Origin: Lytechinus pictus
Taxonomy: Eukaryota
Length of the DNA: 64,000 nucleotides
Direction: 5' to 3'
Assembly: GCF_037042905.1 (NCBI RefSeq)
Contig: NC_087251.1
Span: forward strand, 11,162,001 to 11,226,000
Shown: in pieces, positions 1,980 to 50,600 of the stretch
How positions within the stretch are numbered: position 1 is the stretch's first letter
Layout of the letters: the number at the start of each line of letters is the position of its first letter
Program-made: the position numbers and the translations under genes
Notes under the pieces: generated by a model
Told to the model about the DNA's origin: nothing
Seen by the model: the letters and a program-made list of their open reading frames with translations, nothing else
Databases searched by the model: none

Positions 1980-2535
1980 CTATTCCCATTGCCAACCTCG
2001 CCCATTGTCATAACCATTATTGTTTCGATAGTCGTTCCAATAGCCATTTCCATTTTCGTTCATGTCTCCGTTCCAATGATCGTTCTCAAACCGATCCCCA
2101 TCCCAGGCCCCGTTTCCATTTCCTTCTCCATCCCAATGATCAACCAAATTCCCATTCACGTAGTCGTCCCCGTTCCAATAGTCATGATACTGGTTCCAAT
2201 TCCAATTTCCGTTGCCATTCCCCAAACTATTGCCATTCCCTCTACCGTTTTCATTCATGTTGCCATTTCGATTTCTATTGCCGTTCCCGTTACCATTACC
2301 ATGATTACCGGTCCCATAGCCATTCCCATTGCTGTTTCCATTGCGATTCTCGCTACCGTCCAAATCTTCTTCTACTTCATCATCATTGTCGGGTAAATCA
2401 AAGATGTCCGCTGGTACAGCTCTATACGAAGCTGAAAATCCTCGTCTGGTGGACGATCTGTCAGTGAGCAACTTCAAGTTCATGGTGTTATCTAGAGAAA
2501 CAAGTGAACCCTCAGGCAATCTGTTTCCACACAGA
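1980..2535 (-). CDS. Gene A exon 10: end of CUB3 plus Asn/Gly/Asp/Trp-rich tail, stop
   Basis: LCGNRLPEGSLVS...GFSASYRAV then acidic stretch and (NG)n-rich tail ending GWQWE-stop. Confidence 0.9.
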
Positions 2536-14500: not shown

Positions 14501-17128
14501 CCAGGATATTACAAATGTATAATTTTACAGCATTTTTTATAAGTGTAAACTTTTTTTTTGATACGCACTGTATTGTGCAATCTTTTGGTTAAAGGTATAG
14601 GTTTTTAGTGCGTGTATTCATTCTTTTTATGGCGCTATATGTAAGTTCTCATATATTTTTCTTAGGCCGATGATTATTATTATCACACAAGACCCTTTTA
14701 ACATAAAGAACATTTGATTATTAATTGTGGATCGCCATAGACATACACTGTTTGATTGTGAACAATCAATTATCTTCTATCCATTTTATGCTTCAGGGCC
14801 CGTGATTCGTTGGAATGAATAAAATGTACTTACAGTTGCGCATTTAGGTGCAATACCAATGGGCTGAGGAAGTATTGTGACTTTTCCAACATACGACCAA
14901 CATATTCTATTGAAGAGTCAAAACGGGAGAAGGCAATGTTTGAGTCGTGATTGAGATTATCCTTATCAAAATAATTTGTAATTAATGCGAATGATTTTTA
15001 ACCGGCGCCATCATATCTGTTCAATGAGATAATACCGCCTTTTTTCTCTAACTAAACATATGCACCTTCTATGGCTTAAACGTCCTTAATAAAGTGGGAA
15101 ATTATAATAAATGATAAAATGTTGTAATGACATTGTATGTTATAACAACTATATGTGGCATTCTGGATAAAAAGACGCATATTCTATGATGAAATATTCA
15201 TGATACAACTGTGATCATTGTTAGGTTTCATTCATACAATGCCATTCTCCCACATTGTTTAGATGTGACAATAATGATGAAAATATCATTCATGATTGCC
15301 ATTAAGATGATGATGATGATGATGAAAATGATTATACTACTAACAATATAAGAAGTACACAAAATTATTACAAATAATATTGATTTTAATAATGACAATG
15401 AAAAAAAATGTTGACGATATTATTATCTCTAAAATTATACATCTGTTAGTCTGTCATATCGTAGAATATCATGTTACACAATTGAAAAAGCAGTACTTAC
15501 GTAGGTTTGTTTGATAATTGGAAGGATAGATACTGTTCAGTCGTAGGTGATGGATCAAAAGTCAGGCAAGTGTTACTTTCCCAGTGTTCTATCGCAAGAC
15601 TGATGGCAGCTGAGAAGTTTCCTGAAATTCAACCAAGACATTGTTTAAAAGTGCCTAGACCTCAGTATCACTTTGGTAGACAATCCAAAAAAATTACCTT
15701 GTATTTATATCTTCAATGACAGCTTATATTATGGATAAACTTTATCATTTTCAGAATTTGAATAAAAGCAGTTAGGGATCCATTTGATTATCCATCGATT
15801 TATCAGCATCCAGTCACTAACGATCAAAGTTTTTCTTATCATTTACATGACCCAATACCCATTCTATTCAATAACCCCAAAAAGACATCCAAAATAGCGC
15901 GATCTATATCATTAATTTCCGGCCCTAGATGCGAAGTGTAATCATTTGTAGCGCGAACAGAGAAATCCCTAATTTTATACCATAAGTAGTGTAAACAGTG
16001 AAAATCTACTAATTTGATACCCTTCAACATGGCGTTCTCATCTTAAACATTAATTCAACAATGAACGATTCGAAAAGAGAATCACGAATGCTAGGAAAAA
16101 TGATTTACCTAATTGACAAACCCTACATTGCATGCATGAATGGTATCATCTGCATAACCAAATTTGCAACTATAGCTGGTGTGACGTTTGAGAAATGACT
16201 AACCTCAGTTGCAATTGCCTGCTAATCGTGTTGAAAAGGCGTCCTCCCCCAAATGAATAAATGAATGAATAAATAAATAAGTATTATAATAAATAAATCT
16301 TTAACAAAAGAAATTGACGACGCCCGGGTATAGCAGGTCCTATGGAGAGTGACTACCTTTCCTTTCCCCGGGCTAACATCTCCATCGACGTTTCATAGAC
16401 GCAGCGGACAAGGGAAGAACGTAGCAACTCTGTCCATTATGTTCCGAAAATGACCTGGGTCCCGTAACACAAAGGTTAGCGATTGATCGTACGCTTGATT
16501 TTCACGATTGATTGTACATTGTAGTCAATGCAATCAAACGTAGTAAAATGTTCTACGATCATTGCTAAGTTCTGTGTTACGGGCCCCAGTGCATATTTTT
16601 AATAAGTTGTCCTTAGTCCAAACAGTACGAGTCACAGAATGCGATGACCTAACGGGAACAATCTCGACGCCGCACGGAATATTTATGTGCGCACAATAAA
16701 CTCAGTGGGAACACGATCAACCCAACATGAGCTTAGCACGGACGTGACGAAGACGAAGCATGCATGTGACGATTTTTATTTTTTCGAAAACAACAGAGTT
16801 GGCGCTACGACCTAGGATTTTCTTTTTATCTAAATTTAAAGCCCCCTTTACATCAGATGAAGTCCCCCTACATTGTTGAAATTTAGAAGAAAACCTAGTA
16901 CGCGGCACCACCTTCGTTTGATTTTCCCGAAAAAATGTAAAATTGTAAAGTGCATGCTACGTCCGCGCCACGTCCTTGTTAAGCTCATGTTAGGTGTGCA
17001 TTCAGGGGCGTCGATCCATTTTTCAGATTGGGGGGCAAAATCATGAATCAACTTTCCAAAGGCGCTCGATCACACAAAACAAACAGACTCAAACACACAC
17101 ACATACGCCTATATGTATATATATATAG

Positions 17129-17192
<64 letters not shown>

Positions 17193-17669
17193 CGAAAAAA
17201 TCACAAGACGATTTGACGTTGCTTGGAAGACCACTATTTAATCAAGCTTTCGGCCTTAGGCCTTCTTCATGGGTTCTATAAACAAAAGTGAACGAAACAT
17301 AATCAGTACTACAAAGGGAGGAACAGATGGACATATGGACATATAATACTGATATAATAACATATGTAACATAATCAATGGTACAGAGGGAGGAACAGAT
17401 GAACATATGGACATATAATGTACCATTGATTATGTTACATATGTTATTATATCAGTATTATATGTCCATATGTCCATCTGTTCCTCCCTTTGTAGTACTG
17501 ATTATGTTTCGTTCACTTTTGTTTATAGAACCCATGAAGAAGGCCTAAGGCCGAAAGCTTGATTAAATAGTGGTCTTCCAAGCAACGTCAAATCGTCTTG
17601 TGATTTTTTCGCCTAAGTATTTCGTACAAGACACAGTAGTCATGTTAAAGAGTGGATGCCTGTTTACAT

Positions 17670-17714
<45 letters not shown>

Positions 17715-20700
17715 TCTCACCAACAAATTAAATTTTAAAAAATTTAAAAAATAATAGATGCGAGCACGAAGCGCGAGCTGAAAATTTTGATATTTTGATC
17801 TTAAAAAAAAGAGTTTAATTGACGTTTTTAATAAAGAACAAGAAATATATCCAACAAAAGATTATTGCAAATCGAAGTGGGAGTTCTTTTGAGGTATAGA
17901 ACTGAAAACGGGACATTCTATTCACCTATTCAATCATGAAAAGTATGGGTTTTTGCTACAGAAATGATGCGAGCGCGAAGCGCGAGCTGAAATTTTTTTA
18001 TATTCTAATCTGAAAACCGGACTTTTTTAATACGATTTTTGATAAAGAACGAGTTGTGTATCTCAATCTCGCTTGCTGATTTCTGTGTAACATTACAATC
18101 ATATTTCATTTTTTGCACATGCGGAATTGTTGGGGGGGGGGGGGCAAAACGATATGTTTACCCCCCCCCCCCCAATATTTTCATTGGTGGGGCGGTTGCC
18201 CCCCCCCCCCCATGATCGACGCCTCTGTGTGCATTGTTCCCACTATCACCGCGTTCTCACTTAGCCCAAGCTCGCGGATCAGACTCGCCTCGTGAGTCAG
18301 CCTCGGCTCGTGGGGTCTTCTCCCTCGCATTCACATTTAGCTCAGCTCGCAAAGCAGACTCGCCTTTCGGGTCTCCCCCGCCAATTACCCACAATCCTCC
18401 GCGATAAATATGTAAACAAACTCGACTGGCGCGCGCTTGCCTTGAAAATTAACCACGAATATAACTGCAAAAAATCGAGTGTACTCTGGACGGACTGCGC
18501 TGCGTGCGTAGAAAAACTCGAATAAAGCGCGCGAGATACACCGGATGTTTGCAATCAATTGACGTGTCTCCCCCGGCTCACGGGTCTGATCCTACCTTTT
18601 TGCTGGGGCAAAAAAGGCGAGTCAGACTCGCCTCGCGGGGCTGATAATTTCCGTTCACATTGGGGGAAAAGGGCGAGTTAGACTCGCCTCGCGGGTCTGA
18701 CTCACGAGCTGGGGCTGAGTGAGAACACGGTTCATGTTTATTTTGCGCACAGAAGCGGTCCATGTTGCGTTAAAAGAGATCTAGATATGTTCTGACTACA
18801 TCCTGCATCTCGCGACTTGTACTTTCGTCTCTTTGGCCGTAACGTTTATTGGCAGTACAGTAGACATAGACAGAGTCGTTGCTACGTTCTTTCCGTGTCC
18901 GCTACGTCTATGCTATGTCGATGGAACTGTTAATAGGTCTTTATTGCGTAATTACTATACACATTGTTCTGACGACGCTCCCGCTACGTGGACATTGGAT
19001 ATGTTCAAAGTCTACGTAGCGGAAAATGGGTCTCCGGAGATCATACAGACTATAACGTATAATAGCCATGATAACAGTTCTCGCTATACGCTTTTAGTAC
19101 TCTGAACGGGACTCTGAAGCAGTTCCCTCTGCATCACGACCATTTTCCGGGCCATTTTCGAAAACAACAAATTTGTCCTAGGCATTTTTTCTGAATTTCT
19201 ACGACATAGCGGAAACAATCAGCCATGTCTGCAGTGTAAAGGTACCTTAAAGTGTATTTTTGGTTTATTTGTTAGCTTCGTATATCAGAAGAATCACCTT
19301 TTTGCAACCTTACAATTTCTTACTGATTTCTATTCTCGTATAAATTGATTTACTCACTAGCAGATTCCTCAATTTTGTATGGTATTGTGCCGTTTGGCCA
19401 GAGTTTGCGCCAGTCAGTCACTGCTTTTCTCTTCACTCGTCTTGTCTCTTGTTGGTTTTCCTGTAGGAGATGTTCTTGTTCAGGGGTAAGCTTGATATCT
19501 CCATCTAGATCGCCCGTGGAAGGTTCTTCATCGAGATTCACACGGGGTTCCAACGGATCGGCCACGTCTCGTACCTGGGCAGGGATGAGAACGAATTCAG
19601 ATCCGGGTCGTGTCAGGATTACATCTCTAGTTTTTCGTGAGCCGTGATCGTTGGGTTTCACCATCGGATACAAGTCTGTAACCTAGTGACAAGTGAAAAT
19701 AGTTGCCTTCGAAATGCATGTCTGATTTTAGAGATTATGTAGGCATTTAATATCTTCACATTTCCAGAGCAAGTATATATTAAAAAAATGATAATACTTC
19801 ATAGTATCCAGTATAAACATTCTAAAAGAAAACGTGCAAATCAGAACAAACGATGTACGCCTATCACCTACGTTTGGCATTAGCCACGAAATTCATTATC
19901 AGGACAACCAAACGAAAAAATAGGGGCATGTTGAATCTGAATTATTTTGATCACTCATAGAAAGAGCTTGAACTTACTAAAGTGACAGAGTTTTTGATGA
20001 CATTCAGTCAAAATAATGTCCATTCTGCCCCGGAAAAATAAATATGAACAGTGCTCAATGCAAAAACCAAGGTTAATTTTTTTTAACAACTGCACACCTA
20101 GTTACCAAAAATGCATATAGCATTTCCATTTATTTTAAAACAGGATAAAAGAGAATTGTAGATTAAATGCCTTGCTCACGGGCATAGGTGCCGCGGCCGG
20201 GGAACGAGCCCCGGACTTTCCATGTATAGCCAGGCGCCTTAGACCACTCGGCCACGGCACCCACCATTCGGAGGCATTCGATCAAGCTCGCATGAGTTAA
20301 CATTACAGAGTTTTCACTCCACAACGCACGAGGGATGCAAAAGGAAAGAAAATGTATTGCCAAATACCCTTCATGACAATTGACAAGAAGAAGTCTTTGT
20401 CGAAAATTGGTGAGTCAAAACAGGAATTTCGTCCTGGATCCAGGATAAACGACATAATCATTTGCAATTTTTAATCAGCTCCAAAACTTAAGACGTAACT
20501 GCTGTATCGGATTAACAATTTTCGACAAAGACCTCCCATCTTTTCACTGTCATTTGACTAGCATTCTCAATAGATTTACTGTATTCTTGAATCCGTTCTA
20601 TTCAGTAGCGTACCGTGACTCGGAGGAGACAAAGCATTGGGGGGGGGGGGGGCAAAGCATTGTTCACAGACAATGCACTGCCCCCCCCCCAATGCTTTGT

Positions 20701-21528
20701 CTCCTGCGGTTCACGGTACGCTACTGGTTCTATTGCAATCCAAAACTTTGTCTCCAAAATGTAAACCATAGGTTTATTCATCTGCACATGACGACGCGAC
20801 GCCACTCCACTATGCTCCTTGTCAAGCCCGGTTTTAATTCAATAATTATTTATTTTCTAGAAGATTTTATCAATATCCTTACTATTCAGGCATAATTTTA
20901 CCCTAAAATCCAGACCTTTAGAACATGCGATGGTGCTGTTCGTCACTAGCGAGTTTTTTGTTCAGCAACGCGGAATGAAATCCAACAACACAGCAAGTGC
21001 ATTGAAAACGCAAGTCATATCACAATGAAATCTTTGTCGAGGGTCGGAACAGCATGCAGTTTCGTTCCAGAGCTGACGAAAAATCTGTCGTTTGTCCAGA
21101 GTCACGGACGAAATTCGATTCAACGACCCTCGACAAAGAGTTTATTGTCATGAAGGGCTTTGACACTAGATTATGTACGTTCCAAAAAGCTTCAGCGAAG
21201 TTCTTGCGAAAACTTCCTATTATTTGTTATCTTGAAAAATGTACACCAGTCACACTGGTGGAAGTGACTCCATACCGATCAAATGAATTACGTTATTTCC
21301 AACGGCATACCACCGGTCAGTTTACAGTCATTTTAGTTGGTGTGTGTGTAGGATAAGTCATTACTCTGACCTTTGAAAAAAATGAAGATAATTTGATTTT
21401 TATCTGGACCAGTGCATTAACCCCTATGATATACCATGCTTGATACTCACGTCATCATCAGATAATGGTCTTCCGTTCACTGACGAAATCAAGAGAGAAA
21501 AGACCACGAGAGCAGCAACTTTCAGCAT
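1980..21528 (-). CDS. Gene A: secreted astacin-family (BP10/SpAN-like) metalloprotease, 10 coding exons, 1310 aa (SP-pro-astacin-EGF-CUB-mucin repeat-CUB-CUB-NG tail)
   Basis: Exons 21528-21451, 19682-19358, 15621-15501, 14906-14834, 11190-10990, 7463-7214, 6808-6708, 5945-4057, 3502-3164, 2535-1980. All introns are GT-AG, phases 0,1,2,0,0,1,0,2,2, total 3933 nt in frame. Zinc motif [19 protein letters not shown], Met-turn SIMHY, propeptide LDGDI, furin site RVKR. Confidence 0.93.
3164..3502 (-). CDS. Gene A exon 9: end of CUB2 and start of CUB3
   Basis: LCGNKQP...GFSASY...ITSPKWP...; symmetric phase 2-2 exon, 339 nt. Confidence 0.92.
4057..5945 (-). CDS. Gene A exon 8: rest of CUB1, Thr/Ser/Pro repeat region, N-terminal part of CUB2
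   Basis: ORF 4053..5984; CUB motifs CIWDYV, FCGS, SPNYPRKY, CPFD; cag/gtaagt. Confidence 0.93.
4420..5600 (-). repeat. Coding minisatellite, 45-48 bp unit (TTSERPTEPATTTARV-like), mucin-like
   Basis: About 20 units of gctggttctgttggacgttcactggtggtgacacgagcagttgtggta on the plus strand; more degenerate at both ends. Confidence 0.95.
6708..6808 (-). CDS. Gene A exon 7: N-terminal part of CUB1
   Basis: PCEFEMTSNSGMIQSPNFGIGNYPLDTICIYHIK; cag/gtatga. Confidence 0.9.
7214..7463 (-). CDS. Gene A exon 6: end of astacin domain plus EGF-like domain
   Basis: SYAIDRTIPTI...IGQRKALSFRDVQAANMIYNCSVGCPSLTCYNEGFVGPDCTCVCPEKFTGTHC. Confidence 0.93.
8488..10966 (+). mobile_element. PIF/Harbinger DNA transposon (defective) in intron 5 of gene A
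   Basis: 17-bp perfect inverted repeat aagttcacaccaacggc at both ends; subterminal gctctgata/gctttgat repeats at both ends; DDE transposase inside. TSD not cleanly resolved. Confidence 0.88.
8933..10275 (+). pseudogene. Harbinger DDE transposase (HARBI1/DDE_Tnp_4-like), frameshifted
   Basis: Motifs KLAITLRHLATG, IGALDGKHI, GKGHMSDSQIF in ORF 8933..9862 continue as YFILGDDAFAL and RRVVENALGIMANRFR in ORF 9757..10275. Apparent 1-nt deletion near 9800. Confidence 0.88.
10990..11190 (-). CDS. Gene A exon 5: zinc-binding motif and Met-turn
   Basis: [26 protein letters not shown]...PYDYESIMHYSPY; aag/gtaagt. Confidence 0.95.
11320..11630. mobile_element. hAT-type MITE
   Basis: Starts caggggcggaaatc, degenerate right TIR; 8-bp TSD ctagtata (11312-19, 11631-38). 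Confidence 0.7.
11684..13565. mobile_element. TTAA-flanked (Kolobok-like) non-autonomous element with ~670-bp internal inverted arms
   Basis: TTAA|aggagaaatatattga ... tcaatatagttctcct|TTAA; internal arms 11874-12545 and 12709-13376 are near-perfect reverse complements. Confidence 0.75.
13592..14570. mobile_element. Tc1/mariner-type MITE, copy 1
   Basis: TA|cagtgcgtatca...aagtttacactt TIRs|TA; reverse-complement copy at 29211-30195. Confidence 0.88.
14834..14906 (-). CDS. Gene A exon 4: astacin domain
   Basis: ICWSYVGKVTILPQPIGIAPKCAT; tag/gtaagt, phase 2->0. Confidence 0.9.
15501..15621 (-). CDS. Gene A exon 3: astacin domain
   Basis: RNFSAAISLAIEHWESNTCLTFDP...; cag/gtaagt, phase 1->2. 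Confidence 0.9.
16457..16586. mobile_element. Small MITE (Harbinger-like gggccc termini)
   Basis: gggtcccgtaacacaaaggttagc / gctaagttctgtgttacgggccc inverted ends. Confidence 0.6.
16720..16994. mobile_element. MITE-like element with long imperfect inverted ends
   Basis: aacatgagcttagcacggacgtg... vs ...cacgtccttgttaagctcatgtt. Confidence 0.55.
17003..18227. mobile_element. hAT-type MITE hosting a palindromic insertion
   Basis: TIR caggggcgtcgatc / gatcgacgcctctg; 8-bp TSD tgtgcatt. Confidence 0.85.
17189..17615. repeat. Perfect 197-bp inverted repeat (Penelope-like terminal fold-back) inside (TA)n
   Basis: Arms 17189-17385 and 17419-17615; 33-bp spacer; motif TGAAGAAGGCCTAAGGCCGAAAGCTT in each arm. 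Confidence 0.85.
18248..18731. mobile_element. MITE (Harbinger-like) with internal agactcgcctcg repeats
   Basis: accgcgttctcacttagcccaagctcg / cgagctggggctgagtgagaacacggt. Confidence 0.65.
19358..19682 (-). CDS. Gene A exon 2: propeptide and start of astacin domain
   Basis: ...LDGDIKLTPEQ...RRVKRKAVTDWRKLWPNGTIPY; tag acceptor, gtgagt donor. Confidence 0.92.
20162..20261 (-). mobile_element. tRNA-derived SINE, 5' part
   Basis: ggtgccgtggccgagtggtctaaggcg (A box) ... gggctcgttccccg (degenerate B box) ... gcccgtgagcaaggcatttaa. Confidence 0.7.
20367..21157. mobile_element. Non-autonomous TIR element (cccttcatgacaat termini); related fragments near 8236-8420 and 28350-28580
   Basis: 14-bp perfect TIR; shared internal motifs aagtctttgtcgaaaattgg / ttcgtcctg...ctgga...aacgac. 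Confidence 0.65.
20603..20726. mobile_element. 124-bp almost fully palindromic hAT MITE nested in the previous element
   Basis: cagtagcgtaccgtga / tcacggtacgctactg; 8-bp TSD gttctatt. Confidence 0.85.
21451..21528 (-). CDS. Gene A exon 1: signal peptide
   Basis: MLKVAALVVFSLLISSVNGRPLSDDD followed by gtgagt donor; hydrophobic core. Confidence 0.85.
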
Positions 21529-29200: not shown

Positions 29201-32200
29201 TGTATTTATACAGTGCGTATCAAAAAAAGTTTACACTTTGAAAAAATCCTGTAAAATTATACATTTGTAATATCCTGAAGATTTTTCCACATTTTAACAT
29301 TGGTACAGATCCATTTAAGCAAATGATGATATAACTGTCGAAAAACATTTCCGCTTGAGTGAGCACCACTTACTTTTGAAAATTGGGTAAAAAATTATTT
29401 GCGCAGAACTTCGAAATAGTTATGCAAATAAAAGTAGATCTTAATCATGAAGAAAACGTGGAATTTAGCTGGTAAAATTTATTTGAAGATATCTTTTACC
29501 TTTTTAAACTTGTTTCCTTGCCCAAAACACTTCGAAGAGTCCATTGCACCCCACCCCACTCCCCCACACACCGAGGCCATCGAGACGAATTTTACTTTGC
29601 ACTGAGCTGTGATTTACATGAAATGGCTTAGGCTTGATTTTAATTTTGTTAATCATTGTCAAGCTTGGGAAAAGTGTGGAGAAACAAGTATTGAATGAAA
29701 AATGAAATGTAAACCCACTTTAAATGATAAAAACTCAGTGTAAAAACGCTGGAGATGTCTGATATAAACTTTTGTTCAGGTTCAGTTATGTCCTCAGATC
29801 CAGCTGGCACAAAAAGGGTGAAGGTTGTGCTTACTAAATGTTGAAATTTCAATTTGGGTGGCAAAATTGTTACAAAGTTTTTTAATGTATACGTTTTATT
29901 TCAATCGACTAAAAGTGCAAGGGAAATGTGTGAGAAATGTTTCGCATGGTAAGTTTGAGTTCGCCCTTTCCCCTTGACACAGCGTGAAAACGAGCATTTC
30001 TGCGCAAACAGATTTCTGCGAGCTTTACAAAAATGGACAGTGCTCACTCAAGTGTGACATTCTGTCAAAACTTATACTTTCATTGGATAGATGAGACCCA
30101 AACCTAAGATTATATGTGAAAAAAATACCCACATGTTGTATATTTTTGAATTCCCAGGGCTTTTTTAAAGTGTAAACTTTTTTTGATACGCACTGTATAG
30201 GATCAAATAAGTCTTATTGAATTAGATTGATTCGTGTATTCAGTGTCAGAGAACCGAGCTATCTACATGATCTATATGAACGATATTTTTTTGTGATTCC
30301 TCTATTGATAATAATTTATTCTATTCCAATCTGTAGATGCTATTCATATGTTGGCAGACAAGGAAAGTCTCAAGATGTTTCTATTGGAGAAGGATGTACC
30401 AAGGTAAATAATTAACTGAACATGTAAGAAATACGTTGGTCGAGATGTCTGGGTAGAATATGAATGAATGAATGAATGAATGAATCTTTATTTCGTTTCA
30501 TTTCCGATATTAAACAACAATAACAACAACAACAGTAAATCATTGCGATGTAAGTAAATAGCAAAGAACAAAAGTAAATAATTACAGGATAATATACATA
30601 ATACATGCGCTACTTTTATGGAACATTAGTAACACCCATGAGAAAAGATGAAAATGAAACGTGGTGACCTACTAAGAAGCTTAGCTTGTGGGCCATAGGC
30701 CACCAGAATGTAAAAAAAACTTGCATTAGCAATCATTTAAAACATCATAAAACAAGCAAACAGAAAATTGGAGTAAATAACCAAAGTACAGATATACATA
30801 TTTACAAAAGATACACTAAAAAGTAAAAAAAAAAAAGTAAAATGCAGAATGCAAACAAATTCTATTAGACCTAAAGTATAAGAATTTGACATTCGAAAAG
30901 TAGAAAGAAAAGAGGAAAAAAATAAGAAAATAAGCAGAGCTCTATTTTTGCATGGATAATTGTGGGAAGAATACAATTTATAAAGTTAGACAAGATACAA
31001 CCAGCAGGCATTCATTTACTGATCTAAGTATTTCTTCAGTAAATCGGTCTTTAACTTGTTTCTAAAAACACTAAGGCTAACTGATTGCTTCAATGAAGAT
31101 GGAAGGGAGTTCCATAAGTTTGGCCCTGTATAAACAAATGTATTTAGCCGAAAACTAGTTTTGACCAATGGCAAGTGGAGAAAAGAAACTTGTCTTGTAT
31201 AGTAAGAATGGATTTGGTCATTTGTAACACATAATGAAGCAAGGGCTAGTGGAAGTTCTCTTATTTAATTGATACATAATGCAACCGAGGTTGAGATCAA
31301 ATATGTCATGTAAATTAAGAAACTTGTTTTCATAAAACAAAATATTAGTGTGAGATCGTGAACTTACTCCACATACTAGTCTAATTACCCTTTTCTGAGC
31401 TTTTAATAACCCATCTAAATGAACTTTAACAGCGTTACCCCCAGGCAAGGATACAATAATTCAAGTAAGGCACAACGAGAGTTGAGTACAATATGCAGAA
31501 TATATTTTTGGGAATATACTCTTCAATGAATTAATGACTCCTGAATTTCTGGAAGGAAGTTTACATAAATAAGATATGTGAACTTTCCAATTGAGCTTAC
31601 TATCAATGTGTATCCCAAGGATTTTTGTACTCGAGACTTCAGTAATCTGACCATCACTGATTGTAATATTACCTGGCAATGTTGCTAGGGTGTTGCTGAA
31701 TAGCATGTTGTTTGTTTTAACAAGATTTAAGGAAAGCCTGTTAGCAATGATCCATTCGTTAACAGAATTCAATTCTGAATTGATAGTTTGCAATAAATTG
31801 CAGGGGTTCTTTTCAGAAAAGATATATGCTTGAGTCATCTGCAAACAGGATAAATGAAAGGATATTTGATGACTGAGGGAAATCATTAATATATATGAGA
31901 AATAAGATAGGTCCAAGGAGTGAACCTTGTGGCACTCCACATGTAATTGACTGCATAAAAGACTTAACACCATTTAAGAATACAAACTGTTTTCTATCAG
32001 AGAGGTAGCTCTTGAACCACTCCAAAGCCTTACCCCGGAATCCATAGAAAGATAGTTTATACAAAAGGATGTCATGATCAATCGTGTCGAAGGCTTTGGA
32101 GTAGTCTAGGAATATACCGACAGTATGTAGCCCATTATCTTTTGCGGAAGAAATTTTGTCAATAAAATGTAACAGAGCATGAGAGGTAGTGTGTTTTTCA

Positions 32201-35200
32201 CGAAAACCAAATTGTTCAGAAGCGAGAATATCATTAATTTTCAAAAATTTCATAACACGAACAGAAATTATTTTTTCAAGAATTTTAGAAAAACATGTAA
32301 GAAGAGAGATGGGCCGGTAATATCCAATTTCCTGAGGGTTTCCCTTTTTGTAAATCGGCACAACTTTGGCTATCTTCATACTCAAAGGAACGATTCCATG
32401 TACAATAGATAAATTGAATATATGAGTAATGGGAGAAACAATAACATAAATAACTTCTTTAACTTCTTTAACTTCAATAACTTCTTTAACTTATTTTATG
32501 TAACCGCATCAGAGCAAGCCTTGTATTAGGAAGTGTAGATATGGTAGACGGTTTCTCTTTCCAATTACATGTATAATAAATCGTTGTTACTATTGTTTTG
32601 ATAAGTTTTCTTATCAATAATTTAGCATATAGTCCGAGTAACTGATTATTTAAATGAGTAAAAATTACAGTAACACGTCATGTAAGATGTTCTCTGTGTG
32701 CTGGATTGAAAATACAGGTTCATCATGATTTAAGAACATCATTTTCGAATGCCCGTTATAATTTCGGCCCATGTAAAAGTCTTACAAAATCATGTTAACT
32801 CGTTTTTCTCCTTTCATTATTTTTGTATATGTCAATGTTTCTTAGCTCGGGATCGTGGCTCATGAGATCGGTCATGCAGTTGGATTTAATCATGAACAGT
32901 CCCGCTCAGATCGAGATAATTACGTGGATATCGACACGACCAAAATTACTAGTGGCTTTAGCAATAACTTCGACAAAACTTCGACGTTCACCGGCTTGCC
33001 TTATGATTTTAAGTCAGTAATGCACTACGGCGCAAGAGTAAGTTCACTCATTTCCTGATTATATGTCTTAGGAATGGTTATTATTGCTACTCCGTGCGAC
33101 CAGGCAACAGCGCGGCCAGCGTACATACAGTGTAAGTCAGAGGTGTTATCGATCGCGTCGTCGTCGCCGTCGATGTCCTTTCAGGAAAGTATGGGAACTT
33201 AAAAAATGCCAACCAGATGTTGAGATAATTATCTGGGGAAGCCGACAGCTTATTATCCAATGATCAGATGATGAGATCCCGGATCTCGTCATGTCTACAT
33301 CCTTTAGAAGATATCAGATAACGAGATTCTAGATCTTATCTTGACATCCTTTATGAGATGATAAAATGAAAAGATCCTTAAAGGGGAATGAAACCTTTGA
33401 AACAAGATAGCTTGTGTGAAAACAGAAAAATCAAAGAAACAGATCAACAAAAGTTTGAGAAAATTCTGACAAATAATGAGAAAGTTATGAGCATTTGAAT
33501 ATTGCGATCACTAATGCTATGGAGATCCTCAAATTGGCAATGCGACAAAGATATGTGATGTCACTTGTGAACAACTCTCCCCATTACTTTAGTATATATT
33601 TCACTTAAACTGCCTCTTTTATCACATCTATCAGTAGATCATGTTCTTTCTACAGGAGGGCATGTAATACAGATTTTTTTTAAATACATCATGGATAAAA
33701 AGCTTGTATCGCCGTAAGAAAAAGCAAAAAGATACATTTTGGGGGTACTTTATAGTCCATCAAAGGGAAAGTTGTTCACATGTGACATCACACTTCCTTG
33801 TCGCATTGCCAATGGGAGGATCTCTAGCATTAGTGATTGCAATATTCAAATGCTCATAACTTTCTCATTATTTGTCCGATTTTTCTTAAAACTTTCTTCG
33901 TTCTTATTCTTTGATTTTTCTGTTTCAACACAAGCCTACTTGTTCCAAAGGTTTCATTCCCCTTTAAATTTTCTTATAACTAGGCCAAATTTTCCTACAT
34001 ACTAATGACCTGTGTGCGTTTGCGGCGCTACAAGTAGACAAGCATTTTGGTATCTTATCATTTCTTCTAAAGATGTCACCATAATAATGATGATAAGATC
34101 CGGAATCTCATCATCTGATCATCTTTGCTTAAGAATCTAGACGTGACCAGTATCTTGTTATATGACATTCGCTTCTGAGGATGTCGGTATGACGAGATCC
34201 GAGATCTTGTCATCTCATCGTCTCTTCTAAAGGATGCAGACGAGATCCAAGATCTCATGCCTTCGAAGGGATATCAGCATGATGAGATCGAAAATCTCGA
34301 ACTTAGGCTAATGCGATGTCGACTTCCGAATATGGTTGGAACTTTTATGCTGACATAGAAAATGTTTTTTTTTCAGCACCTGTAGCCAGCATTTTAAGAC
34401 GGTCCGACCCAAAATTGAAATTGATTACATTGAATCAATCGAAAGCTTATAAACTTCAAAATTAAAATTCACTTTTAACTCTGGTCTTGGTCGTAAATCG
34501 CCACTTAAAGGTCAAGTCGAATCCAGAAAAATGTTGATCTGAATAAATAGAGAAAAATCAGAATAGCAAAACGCTGAAAATTTCATCAAAATCGGTTGTA
34601 AAATAAGAAAGTTATGAAATTTTAAAGTTTTGCTTATTTTTCACAAAACAGTGATATGCACAATTTAAATGAGACAGCTTATTTTTCACAAAACAGTGAT
34701 ATGCACAATTCAAATGAGACAGTCGATGATGTCCCTCTCTATTTCTTTTTCTTTTTTATTGTTTGAATTATACAATATTTCATTTTTTTATAGATTTGAC
34801 AATAAGGACCAACTAGACTGAATCATATTGTATTAAACAATGCTCATTCCACGTGTTCAGGGAGGAAATGATCGTTGTTTCACTTGACAATGAGGAGAAA
34901 AATAGAATATTCCCTATTTCATATTATAAAATACAAAAGAAATAGTGAGTGGATGACGTCATCAGTCTCCTCATTTGCATACCCACCAGGATGTGCATAT
35001 AACTGTTTTGTGAAATTAAGCAAAACTTTAAAATGTCATAACTTTCTTGTTTTACTTCCGATTTTGATGAAATTTTCAGTGTTATGCTGGTTGGATTTTC
35101 CTCTTTTTATTTAAATCAACTTTATGTTGGGGTGGACTTGTCCTTTAAGGTAGCCTTTCTCGCCCTCGCGCGATTGAGGGTTGCCGTAGGAGCAATTTAG

Positions 35201-38200: not shown

Positions 38201-40121
38201 TTTAAAGTCGTACTCCAGGCTGAAAATGAATTTATCTACATAAATGGAGTTAAATCCAAAACCACAAAGACGAAAATTACATCAAAATTCGAGGACAATG
38301 AACGAAGTTATTGAATATTAAAATTTAGCAATATTTTGTGAGAACAATTATATGCACACTGTCATAAATAAAGGTGGGCTGATGATGTCATGCCCCCGCT
38401 TTCCCTTTTTTCTGAAATCAAAATAATTTGATATTATTATTATTTTTATACAGGTGGGTATAATGTATCTTTACTTATACCACCCCCCTCCTTCTCTCTC
38501 TCCCCCTCTCTCTCTCTTATATGGAAATGATTCACCGTATAGGATTTCGGAATAGACCGTCAAGTAGTGTTGAAGCCGATAGGGGATCCTTTTGCAGTTC
38601 ATGATATGGGCCAACGTGAAGGTCTCAGCTTCTTTGACATAAAACTGGCCAACCTGATCTACCCTGGTGACAGTCATCGCTCTGGAACTGACCCATGTGG
38701 TGCCAACGGATACAGAGACAAGACTTGCAAATGCCAATGTTTATACACTTTCCAGGGAGAATTCTGCGATATACCAGACGAAACAAATGGTAATGAATAG
38801 AAACATGTATCGGTATTATCATTCTAACATAATACTTACACACGCACGCATAACCCCCATACACACCCAACCTCACCCCACAAACACATACACACGTGTT
38901 TTGGGGTTCATTTATCTACCTAAATTGAACTTTACCAAATTATTGTTCTTACAAAGCTGGAACACGATATAAAGCAAAAGAATAAGGATACCATTGTAAT
39001 TATCTCTAATGAACGAGATCAATAAATTGGTCAAAATGAAAGAAAAAAATACAAAAAGCCATACATACACTCTTAAAAATATTGGGTCCGACCAATTAAA
39101 ATGGTCAGAATCCACTAGAATTCTGGTAGATTATTACTAATTTTTTTAATAAGTTTTGACGGTCGGACACAACAGATTTGTATATTGGCTCATTCATTGG
39201 GTATTTTGACCGATCCTGTTTACGAAAAAAAGTCAATTCATTGAGTAATCTATGTCAAGGTTGATTTTAAACCCACTTGCGTGAAATGCAAACTTTTGAT
39301 CCCATGTGTTAACCAATAGGTTAAGTTAGCCCACCTTTGTGAATCTGCATGGCCAAGGAGTTAAAATTTGCAATTCTCGTGTTAAAATGCATCAGAACGC
39401 GTAATTTAATTCATGGTAGAACTTTAAAACACATTAAAATTTCTAGAACATGAGTTCAATTCAATTCAAAATTTATTTCAATCAATCATAAAGATACATA
39501 AAATACATACATTTTGATTAAAAAAACATGGGATTGGGAGCTCCTGGAAGTTAAAAAAACTAGTGGGTGGGGCACCACACACAATTATGAAATCAAATAC
39601 AAAGCAATATGAAACATACAGAAAGAGTAAACAACAAATAACATTGAAATACAATGCAAAAAATGGGCTAATGCAGAGGAAATAAACAAACAAACAAGAA
39701 ATGATAACTGTAAACAATAGTGACATACAGTGTGCTATTGGCAGGATTTTAATACTGAGAGAAAAATTCATCTGTCAGAAGTTTTTTTTACATTTATTTA
39801 GAGCTTTACCTTGTTAAATATCATTGTTCAAATCATTCCATAGCTTGATTCTTCTACAACTTAGAGAATTTTTGGGTAATTTTAGTTTTTGGAAGATATT
39901 GGTCAAGATCTGCTGAATGACGTGTAAATTATGAATGGTAAGAGGCCTTTGTGTTGAAAAGATTAATAAAAACATTTGGCAAGAGATTTGAATTGGTAAT
40001 TGTACATAAATATACACACTTAAAATGTTGGACAACATACTGTCCAGAGTATCCACTGTGGTGGGGAATGTATGTTGGTAAATATATATATATATTTGCT
40101 CAATTGGATAAAAATTGCCCA

Positions 40122-40178
<57 letters not shown>

Positions 40179-43100
40179 TATATATTCTGGGCAATTTTTA
40201 TCCAATTGAGCAAATTTATTACCCAATTTGGGCAGATTTTAACCCATAGTTGTGTGGACAGTATGTTGCCCATCAGGTTGGTTAAATGTTGAGGCCTTTT
40301 TTTTTGTATTAGTACTGTCACAGATTTTCAATATTTTACAATCGAGAAATAACTCGTTTTTATCAAATATCCCATGTTTGATATCAATATATCAAACTTA
40401 CAGATGTAATATGTTTGAGCAATATTGTCTATATAGGAATTGTCGTCATTGAAACTTCAATGGATGGGGTCATGATCACAATAGTCTTAGGAGGTGATAT
40501 CATAGAATTATAATTTAGATTCAGTTTGAGCATTTTGCGTGTGTTACTGACCCCGATGCATGTAAAGCAGAACAGTACTGTTATACACACAGCCATCTAC
40601 CCATGTCAATTGTTATTTAATAAGCATTTGATTATACTGTATTTTTTTATTTCGAAAAAAAAAAAAGTTTAAGCCCCAGTGGCAGATAACGCTTACTTCC
40701 CATCAAACCTTTGCAGTTGATCGCGAGATGCCAACAGCTCAAACTGGCGAATTCTGTTCCCCTGGCTATGACGGAACCACTCCATACAGTAACGGCAAGT
40801 CTTTCTCTACGTATTTAAAGGTTGGTTGAAAAAAACTATTTGAAATCATATAAATTATTAAGATAATACACTTTTTTCTTAAATTTGAATAATTATTGTT
40901 CAAAATTCTAAACGATGTAAATTGTATAATGATATATAAAACTATACCCCCTCCTCTTTATTTTATCTTTTTTTTTAAATGTAATTGTATATACCGGAAT
41001 GTGCAATGCTTTCTCAATGGTTTTCTGTGAGGGCTCGCATGCCTCTGGGTAATAGTACTGAATTTTACTTTTGCGCGTCCCGGCCCATGGAAAACCATTG
41101 TTATACTTTTTATCCTTTCCTTTCGTTTTTAATTATTTGTATTAAATTATTTAAATTCAAATTGTATTTTTGTCTTTACACTGTACAAGTTGTTTTTTTT
41201 TGTTGCAAAATATATAATGATAATAATAATAATAATATACTGTTAATGTATGCTTGTTCTCATAAACATGATAAAATTGACATAACCTTTGGGCTAATGT
41301 GTCTTTTCCCTTGTCAGTTTGTTCAAGAGATGGTTAATACGGGAGAGGTGTCTAATGTCAATAAGACCCTTTAGACTTTGTTAATTTCTCGTCAATGATC
41401 CGAATGCACTCAGGAAAGTGACATTCAGTTGAACAACACAGGTGTCTTATTTAGCATTCATTAGCATTGTTAAAGGTGTAGCATTCCATCAAGTCGTGTA
41501 TTTTTACTTTTTTTGCAAATCAAATATGTGTAATTTACAGTATATATTTACTTCACTGTAGTCTTAATCAGAACGTGGATCTTGGAGTAAATTATTTTAT
41601 GGATGGATTGAAATTCCAAAGATATTTATCTTATCACATCACAGATGTAGGTTGTTTTGGTCGGAGAAAGGTCGGAGGAAGCCCACTTTTACTCCGACCT
41701 TCCTCCTACCAAGATACCCGGATACTCCTGGAAAGCAGTAGGAGCATCTTGGTCAGAATAATACAAAATTAGCCGGCACCTTTGGATGATTTTTACAGAT
41801 AAATGGCGTTATACAAATGTTGTTCATCATCATCAGCATCATGTCTGATTTATATTAATATGTTTAGTCTTCTGATATAAGGCCTATGTTGTGTTTGTAT
41901 CGTGTTTACTTGTGAAGTATGTAAAGTCAAAATTCAAATTCAAAAGTTTTAGAGCAACCTTTATGATGCTGAAAAATGCTTATGGCATAGAGGTATTCAC
42001 CACACCGTGTATTGCCCAGTCCTCTTCATTGATATTAGCATTGTTATTATTTTTAGTAGTAATAGTAGCAGTAGTAGCAGTGTCATCATTATTATTGGAA
42101 GAGCCGTGGTGTAGTGGTTCTGACTCTCGCCTTGTAAACAGAGGGTCGTATGTTCGAATCCCACCGCGGTCAATTGTCCTTTGGCAAGGTGTTAATCTAC
42201 TCTTTGCCGGCACTCTCGACCCCGGTGCTAAATGGATACCCGGTAGGATGCGAAAGAGTATGTTTGAATTTGCCAGCGCCAAAATGAGGCTGCGATGAAT
42301 GCAAGGAATGCTCCCCAGGGAGTGGAATTTGTGCACTTTTCGTGCGGGATTGAAATGAATCCAATGACCGGGGTATGTAAAGCGCTTTGAGCCGTTCTGG
42401 GAAAAGCGCTATATAAAAATTGGATATTATTATTATTAATTATTATTATTATCATTATTACTACTATTATTATTATTAATGTTGTTGTTGTTGTCGGTAT
42501 TATTATTAACATTACTATTATCACTATTGATATTAAAATAATATTTTTATTCACCTTTTTTTCTTTCCAGGCAGATCCAGGCGAACTGATCCGCGTTCAT
42601 TTCGATTTCTTTAACCTTGAAAGTTATGATACAACGTATAACCGTTGTTGGGATGGGCTTACAATAAATGTAGATGATATGTTTGGTTTTGGGACCACTT
42701 ACTGCGGGAATAATATACCTCCAGATGTAGAAGGTCAGGAAATAATGGTGAACTTCCATTCTGACGACTCAGTGAATGCGAAAGGATTTCACGCTACATA
42801 CTCAAAGGTGACAACAGGTAGGCCTGATTATATTGTATTCTATTGTATTTATTTAAAGGAGAATGAAACTCTTGGAGCAAGTTAGCTTTTGTGAAAGCAG
42901 AAAAATCAAAGAATAAGATCAACAAAAGTTTGAGTAAAATAGGACTAGCAATAGAAGAGTTATATGGAGATCCTCCCATTGGCAATGCGATCAAGATCTA
43001 TGATGTCACAGACAGCGGCGTAACAGGGGTCGGTGGCCAGGGGGGGCAAGAGCCAAAAATTTCCCGGTCATATCATGGTATGAACAGGCGTAATGGTGTA

Positions 43101-46100: not shown

Positions 46101-47625
46101 TTTCTTTTTCCCGTTTTTCTTTTATTTTCCCGGTGAAATCCGCCAGGGGGGGCAACTTGCCCCCCCTGCCCCCCCGCCTGTTACGCCACTGGTCACAGAT
46201 GAACAACTCCCCCTTTTGGACATTGAAAATATACCCCAAAACATCTCTTTTTGCTCATTTTAATCATATGACAAACGATTCATCAATGATATAATGTTGT
46301 GAAACCTCTGTACTTGTCTTCTCATAAAGAGAACACCTCACCTTGTGTGATAGACTCTATAAAAGTGAGAATATAAGTGAAACAAGTAATTAAGTAATGA
46401 GGGAGTTGTACGTGTGTGACATCACAGATCTTGGTCGCATTGCCAATGGGAGGATCTACATGGCATTAGTGATCTCGACATTCAAGTGCTCATAACTTTC
46501 TTATTATTCATTCAATCTTCCTCAAACTTTCAACAATATGTTTCTTTGATTTTTCTCTTTGATATGGATTCAGCTGGTTTCAAGGGTTTCATTCTCCTTT
46601 AATCACGGTAAAACTTACATTCAGTCATAACAGACTGCTTTTCAGCAAGTCCGTGAACATTAAAAAACATGTAAAAAAAGAAGAATATAATGATCGTCTT
46701 CGCCACAAAGAGAGAATACTCTATGATATAGGTTTCTGTTTCTTGTACTAGAAGACGGCGACTGGTCAGGTTACCTAACGGTCCTTGTAATGATTTATTA
46801 TAGGCCCTAATCTTGTTTTGTCTTAAATTTTGTTCAAAGCAAGGAGCTTTCAACAGATCCTTGCTCCAAGTGAAGGATTCCTCTCGTCCCATACCCCACC
46901 CTTTACACTACTTCACCGTTTGTTTCCTTCCTTCTTTCTTCCTTTCTTTTTTCATCTTTATTTATTTAATAATTTATTTAATTGGATATCTTTAAACATG
47001 ATAACATGATTAGATTAACTGTTCTTCAGTAAAGCCCCGTTAACATAAAGAACATGTAAAATATACTTCAACTTATAGATGCTACAAATACAGTAATTAA
47101 AATCCATTAAAGCAGAAAAACAGTAATATATATATACATACTGTATGTGTGTGTGTGAAATTACACATGTACAACAGAGCTTTGGCAACTCTTTTATTTA
47201 AATATTTTGTGAAAGAAATGGATGAAGAGAACAATGGTACGCGTAGTTTAAATCAAGGTTCCCCAGAGCTATCTGCCCTTTGGAAAAATTGGTGATGCCG
47301 AAAAAATGTCTCTGCCGGGAATCGAACCCGGGCCCCCAGCTTTGAGCGCCGGTGTCTTAACCACTAGACCACAGAGACGGGTTAGTGGCTAGTGCGACCC
47401 CGATCCGATTGACCGTCAGATAGACAGATTTTCGACACTATACCAATTATAATTTCCTTTGTCAGGTGTGGTTGGGTTTTGAACAATGCTATACATATAT
47501 ATATATATATTTATATATATATAATTTGAAAGAAATGGATGAAGAGAACAATGTTCTCTTCATCCATTTCTTTCAAACAATATTTAAATAAAAGAGTTGC
47601 CAAAGCTGTAGTACATGTATAACTT

Positions 47626-47666
<41 letters not shown>

Positions 47667-50600
47667 ATAATAAACACAAGTTCACAAGGTTGACTGGAGG
47701 TTCATCATATTTAATTGCAACTCTGAGTTTCACGCAACCTACGTGAGGTGCGATCTTCAGGCAACATATAGATATATATGTGTTCAACATATATATATAT
47801 ATATATATATATATGTGTTGAACACATCATCAACAGTTCGTTCATTAGTCCGCCTCAGTCATGTCAGTGGTAGTATGTGAGACTACAATAATGTTAATGT
47901 AAATTTCCAGGATATAGCTGAATTTATTTTTTGGTGTGTGTCAATATATCCATACACATCCTCACAAATAAACACACAATTCCACCTTCGCCAAAACGTT
48001 GAGCAGAAGAAAACGCAAATTCGAAGTTTTATTTCGTAGTATTCAGTGGTGTGGAAGTCGAATTGTGTTTTTGTTTTGTTTTTTTCTTGTTTTTCAGAAT
48101 TCATATGGCATAGTAGATAAATGATGGGGGCTTAAAACAAATCAAACTCATAATGTCCAATCATGCATGGACATATATATATATATATATATAGTGTGTG
48201 AAAGAAATGGATGAAGAGAACAATGGTAGGCGTAGCTTAAATCAAGGTTCCCCAGAGCTATCTACCCTTTTCATTAGTCCGCCTATATATATATATATAT
48301 ATATATAGCGATTGATATTATTGGTCGGGTTGCAACCGATGATCATAATAAGGGAATGTGAAGTTTCACTTGGGAATTGGTGATAATTTATTTCTTTGAT
48401 CTTTTGTGATTTCCTCCTTTGAAGGAAATGTATGAAAGAATTTACAAAAACTTATGAAAACTTAGATGTCAGTGTCTAGAAAGAAAAGCCAGAAAAGAAA
48501 TACATAATATATAAATATTTATATAAATATATAATATATTTTAACAATACTGTAATGACTTTGATAATGCAAAAGACTTATCTCATTTCGTATTTAGAAA
48601 CCAAACTTAAGTGGAAATCTTGTTTTGATTTGTTTCTGCTTGAGTTCCCTAAATGTTTCATCAGTTTGCCTTCACACCCAAATACATATCGCAAAGCATC
48701 AAGTTTTTTTAAACACGGATTGCTATAATGCTTATGATTAATATTTTCAATTCAGTAATATTTTTTTTTGCGTCCAAGGAGGGAGTATATGTCCAACAAC
48801 GCCGATCGGCTGTAAAGACACCGTTACGATTAGCCCCGGATGCGAGGTAACCATTCAGTCTCCGAATTATCCAAGTCAATACTCCAACGGTGGCGACTGC
48901 AGCTACTCCGTCAGTTCTCCACAAAATTCACTTCAGCTCACCTTTTCTAAATTTCGCACAGAGGCAAACTACGACTTTGTTAGATTCGTGATTCAACAAA
49001 CGGAAACTGCGTAAGTTACTTATTAAATCTTTCTATATAATATAACAAAACACGTAAAATTATCTCTTTTTCAAAAAAGGGCACGTTACGTTAAACGTAC
49101 GTAACGTAATAAGGATGTCAAAAACACTAAAATAATGAAAAAGATTATATATTTCGCTAGGAAAAATACCTGTTTACGGTCCAATTTTCCAATTACGGGT
49201 ATAAAAAGACTAAAATACTCAACAATACGTGTTTAGGGTCCGATTTGAGAGAGGTGTGTGGGGTTGTACTAAACCCAATGAAAGTAAAGGTAAAGCCGAC
49301 GTCCGTGCACGTCCGTGACATAACAAGATATCGTTGTACTTGTTAAAGGACAAGTCCACCCCAACAAAAAGTTGATTTGAATAAAAAAGAGAAAAATCGA
49401 ACGAGCATTACACTGAAAATTTCATCAAAATCGGATGTAAAATAAGAAAGTTATGACATTTTTAAGTTTCGCTTAATTTCACATAAAAGTTATATGCACA
49501 TCCTGGTCGGTATGCAAATGAGGGAACTGATGACATCACCCACTCACTTTTTCTTTTGTATTTTATTATTTGAAATATGAAATGTTCTAATTTTCTCCTC
49601 ATTGTCCTGTGAAACAAAGTTTTATTTCTCACTGAACATGTGGAATTACCATTGCTTAACATTATATTGTTTAGTCAAGTTGGTCCTTATTGTCAAATCT
49701 GTAAAAATTGAAATATTGTATAATTCAAACAATAAAAAACAAAAGAAATAGTGAGTGAGGGACATCATCGATTCTCTCATATGCATGTGACTAAATTATT
49801 GTACATATAACTATTTTGTGAAAAATAAGCGAAATATCAAAATGTCATAACTTCCTTATTTTACATCCGATTTTGAGCATTATATGCTTGTCTGATTTTT
49901 CTCTGTTGATTCAAACAACTTTTTTCTGAAGTGGACTTGACCTTTAAAGGGATGGTACGGGCTGAAAATATTTATATCTTAATACATAGAGTAGAATTTA
50001 GTGAGCAAAATGCCGAAAATATCATAAAAATCGGATAACAAATAATAAAGTTATTGAAGTTTAAACTTAAGCAATGTTTTGTGAAAACAGTCGTCATGAA
50101 TATTCATTAGGTGGCTGATGATGTCACATCTCCACTTTCAGTTTTCTTATGTGATTACATAAAATCATATTTGTTCATTATTTCATACATGTGTGAATAA
50201 TATGTCTCCCTTATAATGAAATAAGTTGCAGCAATAAATATCTAATGCACTAAATCAGTTGTCAATCCAATTTTTGTAGTTTTTGGAGGACAAAATTTGA
50301 ATAAACCTAATTTCATATAATAAAATACAAAAGAACAAGTGGGGATGTGACATCATCAGCCCAACTAATGAATATTCATGACGACTGTTTTCACAAAATA
50401 TTGCTAAACTTTAAAATTCAATAAATTTATTATTTGTTATCCGATTTTGATGAAATTTTCGGCCTGGACCATCCCTTTAAGGGGGTCAATTCAGGAAATC
50501 CTTGTCAAAAGTACCGTTTTGTTTCCAATACTTGTTAAGGGTAGGGTTTCACAGACCAATACTTGTTAAGGGGTGCATTTTCAGAACATGGAAAATACTT

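Follow-up and report, generated by a model that had tools for sequence, protein, structure and literature searches.

Does the dense cluster of repeat-derived modules in an intron of the sea urchin Lytechinus pictus represent one composite retroelement, or several insertions that share a target? The cluster occupies positions 47,140 to 48,305 of a window of 64,000 nucleotides (nt) (NCBI RefSeq assembly GCF_037042905.1, contig NC_087251.1, positions 11,162,001 to 11,226,000) and lies between exons of a plus-strand gene that we take to encode CUB domains. An initial annotation had proposed a single non-autonomous retroelement family that uses a tRNA-like RNA polymerase III (Pol III) unit together with a hammerhead ribozyme, and had named several independent insertions into one TA hotspot as the alternative. 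Our data match the alternative. We find that the cluster consists of separate insertions in a TA microsatellite, including a tRNA-bearing repeat of the Penelope-like element (PLE) type, a reading to which we assign a probability of roughly 85%.

Modules of the cluster

The modules, numbered from the first letter of the window, are as follows.

47152-47488, minus strand: insertion 1 of the tRNA-bearing repeat, a 5′-truncated unit (126-410 of 410 nt) with a 54-nt tail; 94.7% and 90.7% identity to the unit at locus L025
47301-47306, minus strand: T6 directly behind the tRNA, resembling a Pol III terminator
47307-47378, minus strand: tRNA-like cloverleaf within the repeat; anticodon UCA, both the A box and the B box intact (ARAGORN, Rfam)
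47525-47633, both orientations: insertion 2, a head-to-head junction of two short 3′ ends of the repeat
47666-47765, minus strand: 3′ stub, without tail, of a Hydra-clade PLE; 99% identity to the donor at locus L061
47714-47766, minus strand: type I hammerhead of the PLE pseudo-long terminal repeat (pseudo-LTR), with a short palindromic helix III (dimer type), called from motif and family membership
48195-48271, minus strand: insertion 3, the 3′ 77 nt of the repeat (unit 334-410) without tail; 98.7% identity to the repeat unit

The tRNA-like gene is recovered by both ARAGORN (anticodon TCA) and Rfam (RF00005, 60.1 bits, E 1.6e-10), and this copy carries C33 where the family has U33. The hammerhead motif lies on the same strand 335 nt upstream, as had been described. 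The inverted repeats that were read as element termini have real arms, ungapped over 59 nt (47178-47236 and 47549-47607, 95% complementary) and reaching ~47152 and ~47633 when gaps are allowed, but each arm is the 3′ end of a different copy of one repeat, which rules out a terminal-inverted-repeat transposon. The second arm arises in insertion 2, where a minus-strand part without tail (47527-47553) meets a plus-strand part with tail (47549-47633); the same head-to-head junction creates the perfect 26-bp hairpin recorded at 47525-47577 (26 + 1 + 26 nt), whose fold has 25 bp and a 3-nt loop (z-score −11.2) and was equalled in stability by none of 200 shuffles. Three other loci (L089, L096 and L100) have the same head-to-head layout. 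A further fragment of terminal sequence noted at ~48197-48270 corresponds to insertion 3, and the claim that (TA)n surrounds every module holds: six TA runs (47126-47135, 47495-47523, 47631-47662, 47789-47814, 48173-48192 and 48284-48307) separate all modules from each other.

The modules occur independently

Genome counts throughout come from pattern searches and sampled loci of the 812-Mb assembly. When the modules are searched for separately, their order and spacing are held in one place only: the exact pattern of hammerhead, 320-350 nt and tRNA has a single match, this window itself. A search with the whole cluster retrieved copies of the tRNA part only, and a search with the hammerhead part retrieved a different family at 93-99% identity. 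Among 29 other tRNA loci, one contains a piece of the hammerhead module (45 nt, without the ribozyme); two of 29 other hammerhead loci have the tRNA repeat within 1.5 kb, each arranged differently; and a piece of the Hydra-clade end is present in one of 20 tRNA-repeat loci picked by position.

A single non-autonomous family combining tRNA promoter, hammerhead and terminal inverted repeats, like Schistosoma SM-alpha, would explain why tRNA and hammerhead stand 335 nt apart on one strand and why their co-occurrence is slightly enriched, and SINE-like (short interspersed element-like) units with promoter plus hammerhead exist in Schistosoma (PMC6765202). We reject such a composite family because the modules occur independently, which the initial annotation itself had named as refuting it, the layout is unique and the hammerhead belongs to an autonomous PLE, into whose open reading frame (ORF) it runs elsewhere; TA also lies between the modules, and three full units of the tRNA repeat contain no detected ribozyme. 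A family that uses both the tRNA-like unit and the ribozyme is thus highly improbable. From the original proposal, the connection to PLEs, the targeting of TA and the existence of a non-autonomous tRNA-bearing family stand; the hammerhead as part of that family does not.

The hammerhead stub comes from a Hydra-clade PLE

The stub corresponds to the last 100 nt of a Hydra element whose 57-nt tail is missing here. The hammerhead motif has 122 matches genome-wide, and other copies of the sequence run upstream into a 706-aa open frame. In the donor at L061, which spans ~2.6 kb between TA runs and is truncated at its 5′ end, this single short ORF has no internal stop and encodes a reverse transcriptase (YRDD at 348) followed by a C-terminal GIY-YIG-type nuclease region after ~575, with the domains read from motifs: RWK, DKT, CxCX5C (563), CxxC (661) and CxH (690) are present and GxKF/Y is absent. 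A Pfam search of the donor ORF gave no hit. The Hydra clade is defined by these motifs, with hammerheads and (TA)n targets, and is known from echinoderms (PMC8557442); the donor has both a hammerhead in its pseudo-LTR and a (TA)n target. By its motifs the donor is therefore a new member of the Hydra clade, already known in kind, and set beside the published description of the clade, as distinct from Repbase entries, it differs in nothing of kind. Naiad, our first guess for the donor, was dropped against the published clade definitions.

The hammerhead itself has the cores CUGAAGA and GAAA, and its helices I and II fold under constraint; helix III fails in the monomer. Because the sequence at 47714-47766 scores under the Rfam gathering threshold and its free fold is unremarkable (z-score −0.61), the call rests on motif and family membership. 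PLE hammerheads with a short palindromic helix III act as dimers (PMC4209133), and the isolated stub is probably inactive.

Further observations concern this family. Many Hydra stubs (L032-L041, L045 and L060) begin within a few bases of hammerhead helix I, a possible bias of a query that favored such copies. The tails of four Hydra families (L061, L068, L067 and L070) share GAGCACT, a motif absent from the tail of the tRNA repeat. About 30 degraded Hydra-related copies stand in tandem at G000:C15:1879292-2034700 with a spacing of ~2.8-3.2 kb.

A young tRNA-bearing repeat with a PLE-type insertion signature

Tandem copies define a non-coding unit of 404-412 nt (~410), arranged as a 54-nt tail, spacer and 5′ flank, tRNA at 236-307, T6 and 3′ flank. 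With up to 2 mismatches allowed and long arrays included, motif searches returned 3313 matches for the 3′ part, 2467 for the tRNA and 1785 for the 5′ spacer, with controls at 0. Copies differ from the majority sequence by 1-3%, so we regard the family as young. Units form head-to-tail arrays of 2-4 and one run of more than 40, often in non-integer number; the long run (G000:C2:8866031-8883396) keeps an exact 406-bp period and may be a source locus or a nascent satellite.

To avoid ranking bias we sampled loci by position, taking the first 19 and the 21st (the 20th being skipped) of the exact-match list on contig C1. The end motif occurs 30 times in these 20 loci, 7 times continuing into a next unit and 23 times as a true terminus, two rows having been moved by eye from the scripted class to "next unit". 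Fourteen termini coincide with the unit end and eight with the tail end, all abutting TA, and one is broken; 22 of 23 thus fall at two fixed points 54 nt apart against (TA)n. The 5′ junctions, visible in 16 of the 20 loci, are spread over unit positions 52-373, and an inverted truncated copy is present in 9 of 20. L070 combines two insertions of the repeat with a neighboring Hydra insertion, all separated by TA and each consisting of a forward plus an inverted copy with a tail at one end only, a layout reported for PLEs (PMC8557442); insertions pile up likewise at L068 and L080.

A fixed 3′ end with an optional tail, 5′ truncation, partial tandems and an inverted 5′-truncated copy together fit the pattern of non-autonomous PLEs. 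The tail has been explained by two internal starts of reverse transcription in AC-rich RNA, in a signature called unique to PLEs (PMC11167929), and both 3′ ends of the tRNA repeat are AC-rich. At 54 nt its tail exceeds the quoted 30-40 bp and resembles the 57-68-nt tails of the Hydra families in this genome. Judged by insertion signature alone, the repeat most likely depends on PLE machinery.

No ribozyme was detected in the repeat: Rfam at E 10 matched none in three full units, and the printed unit lacks CUGANGA. Rfam also missed the real minimal hammerhead of the window, and the motif check carries more weight here.

Two other ways of spreading bear on the same structure. As a tRNA-derived SINE moved by a microsatellite-targeting LINE (long interspersed element), with tandems formed by later unequal crossing-over, the repeat would have the expected intact A and B boxes, a length of ~400 nt, thousands of motif matches, 3′ anchoring and a simple-repeat end. 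Its tRNA, however, lies at unit 236-307 and not at the 5′ end, and none of the 16 visible 5′ junctions falls at the tRNA start (the nearest is at 230); in 66 of 68 copies T6 follows the tRNA immediately, one of the two fixed 3′ ends lies inside the next unit, and SINEBase (PMC3531059) requires non-tandem elements with a 5′ head, whereas this repeat is often tandem. We consider a SINE origin unlikely. Spread as DNA, by Helitron-type rolling circles or extrachromosomal satellite circles, would suit the long 406-bp-period array and the often non-integer number of units, but variable 5′ truncation, inversions and a tail at one end take the same form as in neighboring PLE insertions, and folding the unit in windows revealed no strong hairpin at its termini, which makes this route quite unlikely.

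The tRNA-like gene across copies

The gene is a 72-nt short-arm cloverleaf whose A and B boxes, full 7-bp acceptor stem and core invariants are kept, with the anticodon loop GUUCAAA in 50 of 56 copies and the T6 noted above in 66 of 68 matched copies. These features, including the terminator, would suit functional UGA-reading tRNA genes (opal suppressor or selenocysteine) amplified for the benefit of the host or of a PLE, and some Naiad PLEs encode selenoproteins (PMC8557442). Against this, the Hydra donor frame has no internal stop, for which we dropped the selenoprotein link, and in position-picked loci conservation of the tRNA does not exceed that of the 3′ flank (1.42% versus 1.19% divergence); no compensatory changes were found in the tRNA stems among copies. 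An apparent sign of selection in BLAST-ranked loci (1.5% versus 2.3-3.1%) failed in the position-picked ones. The short variable loop and G32 are also unlike tRNA-Sec or a normal anticodon loop, and the criterion of a long variable arm would exclude a selenocysteine identity. Decoding by these copies is therefore very unlikely; most probably the unit carries its tRNA as a promoter or as a relic.

A Pol III transcript from the tRNA should end at T6. Since this would place its end 100-150 nt short of the insertion ends, the mobile RNA would need Pol III read-through or transcription by Pol II. The absence of T4 runs from the rest of the unit does not reach significance (284 of 2000 shuffles). 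One exact pattern searched for a parent tRNA gave 0 matches; the gene may resemble tRNA-Glu. At L025 (unit 222-260), an alternative fold (z-score about −2), possibly due to chance, can pair a 10-nt leader before the tRNA with the D arm.

Proposed mechanism and the search for a driver

We propose that two unrelated families inserted into an intronic (TA)n site on at least four occasions. A Hydra-clade PLE left a 5′-truncated 100-nt 3′ end including the pseudo-LTR hammerhead, and the young, non-coding ~410-nt tRNA repeat left three truncated insertions, of which one is a head-to-head pair. Most likely a TA-targeting PLE carries this repeat as a non-autonomous passenger. The multimeric RNA of the repeat may be reverse-transcribed at a nicked TA tract from either of two internal AC-rich starts 54 nt apart, following the PLE insertion mechanism inferred from PMC8557442 and PMC11167929. 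Two start sites on a multimeric RNA would account for the 3′ ends at two fixed points, the scatter of 5′ ends, the 5′ inversions and the tandem runs, and TA retained around each insertion would leave the sites as targets, so that families pile up.

Tentatively, the repeat may be the counterpart, among PLEs, of a SINE or TRIMp3: a retrozyme without ribozyme, with an intact tRNA as promoter and/or processing signal and a TA-targeting PLE protein that copies the RNA in trans without long 3′ homology. In such a tRNA-driven scheme, Pol III could read through from the tRNA to the T6 of the next unit, or RNase P/Z could cut at successive cloverleaves to release unit-length RNA.

Several observations weigh against a repeat that is both independent of the hammerhead stub and mobilized by a PLE. 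The co-occurrence of stub and repeat, 2 of 29, exceeds a rough random expectation of ~1%, an excess that we ascribe to the shared TA target. The 3′-to-5′ gradient of motif counts is approximate, as long arrays are included and three different 26-mers were used. The unit shares no significant 3′ sequence with family ends from 5 Hydra and 7 Neptune-like families; in Chlamys, by contrast, non-autonomous elements generally have their 3′ ends in common with the driver (PMC8557442). A PLE with common termini was found for the hammerhead module and, among these 12 families, not for the tRNA repeat; every end that was reached in the 12 has a hammerhead-like core. Searches with the Naiad-like P0044 and P0151 (layout judged by eye) were swamped, and among the candidates scored (142 of 707 and 46 of 871) gave only Neptune-like nucleases. 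Finally, an RNA intermediate was not seen in two same-species RNA-seq runs, which are uninformative on this point: 1887 and 1335 of 12.9 million reads fall on the unit, both strands alike, and these unstranded reads are mostly 90-95% identical without a common start or end, so that we read them as host transcripts carrying copies.

Short resemblances to PLE ends were discounted, namely the same five final letters in a Neptune-like tail and the repeat tail and one match at E 0.098. A 28-nt unit match at L080 comes from the repeat itself, which has a tiny insertion there behind TA.

Host DNA and neighboring elements

Three further features lie at the cluster.

47778-47827, no strand: fold-back of ~10 nt of host flank, in inverted duplicate across (TA)13, at the Hydra stub's 5′ junction
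47815-48172, no strand: host intron DNA between two TA sites, outside any element; a genome search returns only itself
48270-48284, no strand: 15 nt that repeat host 47841-47855 exactly, where insertion 3 has its 5′ junction

The intron DNA from one TA site to the other (358 nt) is thus single-copy in the genome, and the 15-nt copy is probably templated filler. A fold-back like that at the stub, with ~29 nt of flank in inverted duplicate across a TA run and no element, occurs at 40082-40215.

We take the window to contain two divergent astacin-plus-CUB metalloprotease genes, at 1983-19682 (minus strand) and 27060-51489 (plus strand), the former with a long Thr-rich repeat exon and presumably SpAN/BP10-like. 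Sequences at 8831-10272 (plus strand) and 31221-32490 (minus strand) are presumably broken PIF/Harbinger-type nuclease frames together with a LINE reverse-transcriptase fragment. Neptune-like PLE 3′ ends are paired head to head between TA runs at 17116-17714, with a variant of the hammerhead-like core and a 57-nt tail on one arm, and belong by eye to the same family as L071. Dispersed repeat pieces at 8100-8500 and 21000-21130 contain both hammerhead core words.

Comparison with known systems and implications

Non-autonomous Chlamys PLEs such as MRC1 (PMC8557442) resemble the tRNA repeat in being non-coding, with pseudo-LTRs, head-to-tail multicopy arrangement and microsatellite bias, and mostly without a hammerhead; they differ in generally sharing 3′ sequence with an autonomous family, none of which was found for the repeat, and the available text mentions no tRNA for Chlamys. 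Animal non-LTR retrozymes (PMC7229834; bioRxiv 10.64898/2026.07.22.740005) likewise have tandem units of 150-450 nt, low GC and a proposed mobilization by PLE proteins, but each unit carries a type I hammerhead, in place of which the repeat has a tRNA-like gene; in the main text of the bioRxiv report the term "tRNA" occurs 0 times. Schistosoma SM-alpha and Sj-alpha (PMC6765202) share the arrangement in tandem units, with a Pol III promoter upstream driving transcription of the unit downstream, and differ in carrying a hammerhead, whereas the repeat lacks one and has T6 directly behind its tRNA.

The TRIMp3 elements Helenus, Ajax and Cassandra (PMC10886601) also place a small-RNA gene inside the terminal repeat of a non-autonomous retroelement and may form tandem arrays. 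They are LTR elements with a primer-binding site, a polypurine tract and 4-5-bp target duplications, whereas the repeat is a single repeating unit, without an LTR-internal-LTR layout and with 5′ ends that vary within TA; for Helenus the folds reportedly do not support a function as tRNA, whereas the cloverleaf of the repeat is intact. "Penelope" occurs 0 times in that paper. With tRNA SINEs (PMC3531059) the repeat shares size, copy number, an A/B-box tRNA and a simple-repeat end, and it differs, by SINE description as distinct from sea-urchin sequences, in its internal tRNA with a terminator right after it, its tandem arrays, two 3′ ends and inversions. In its mode of working the repeat resembles a non-autonomous PLE or retrozyme, yet it does not qualify as a retrozyme, a SINE or a TRIMp3 element. 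No tRNA-bearing PLE passenger was found in the literature searched, whose scope left out Repbase, Dfam, subscription papers and supplements; the repeat is apparently an undescribed tRNA-bearing non-autonomous PLE-type family, which the Repbase and Dfam catalogues, outside this comparison, may already hold.

The cluster serves as a caution that TA tracts gather unrelated PLE-type ends and so mimic composite elements, and within it only the tRNA-bearing repeat holds real interest. Its ~2,400 tRNA-like genes with a UGA-reading anticodon will mislead tRNA annotation of this genome. If the cloverleaf is needed for mobility, the repeat would test whether hammerheads are dispensable as processing signals, and the capture of small-RNA genes, by SINEs for LINEs and by TRIMp3 for LTR elements, would extend to PLEs.

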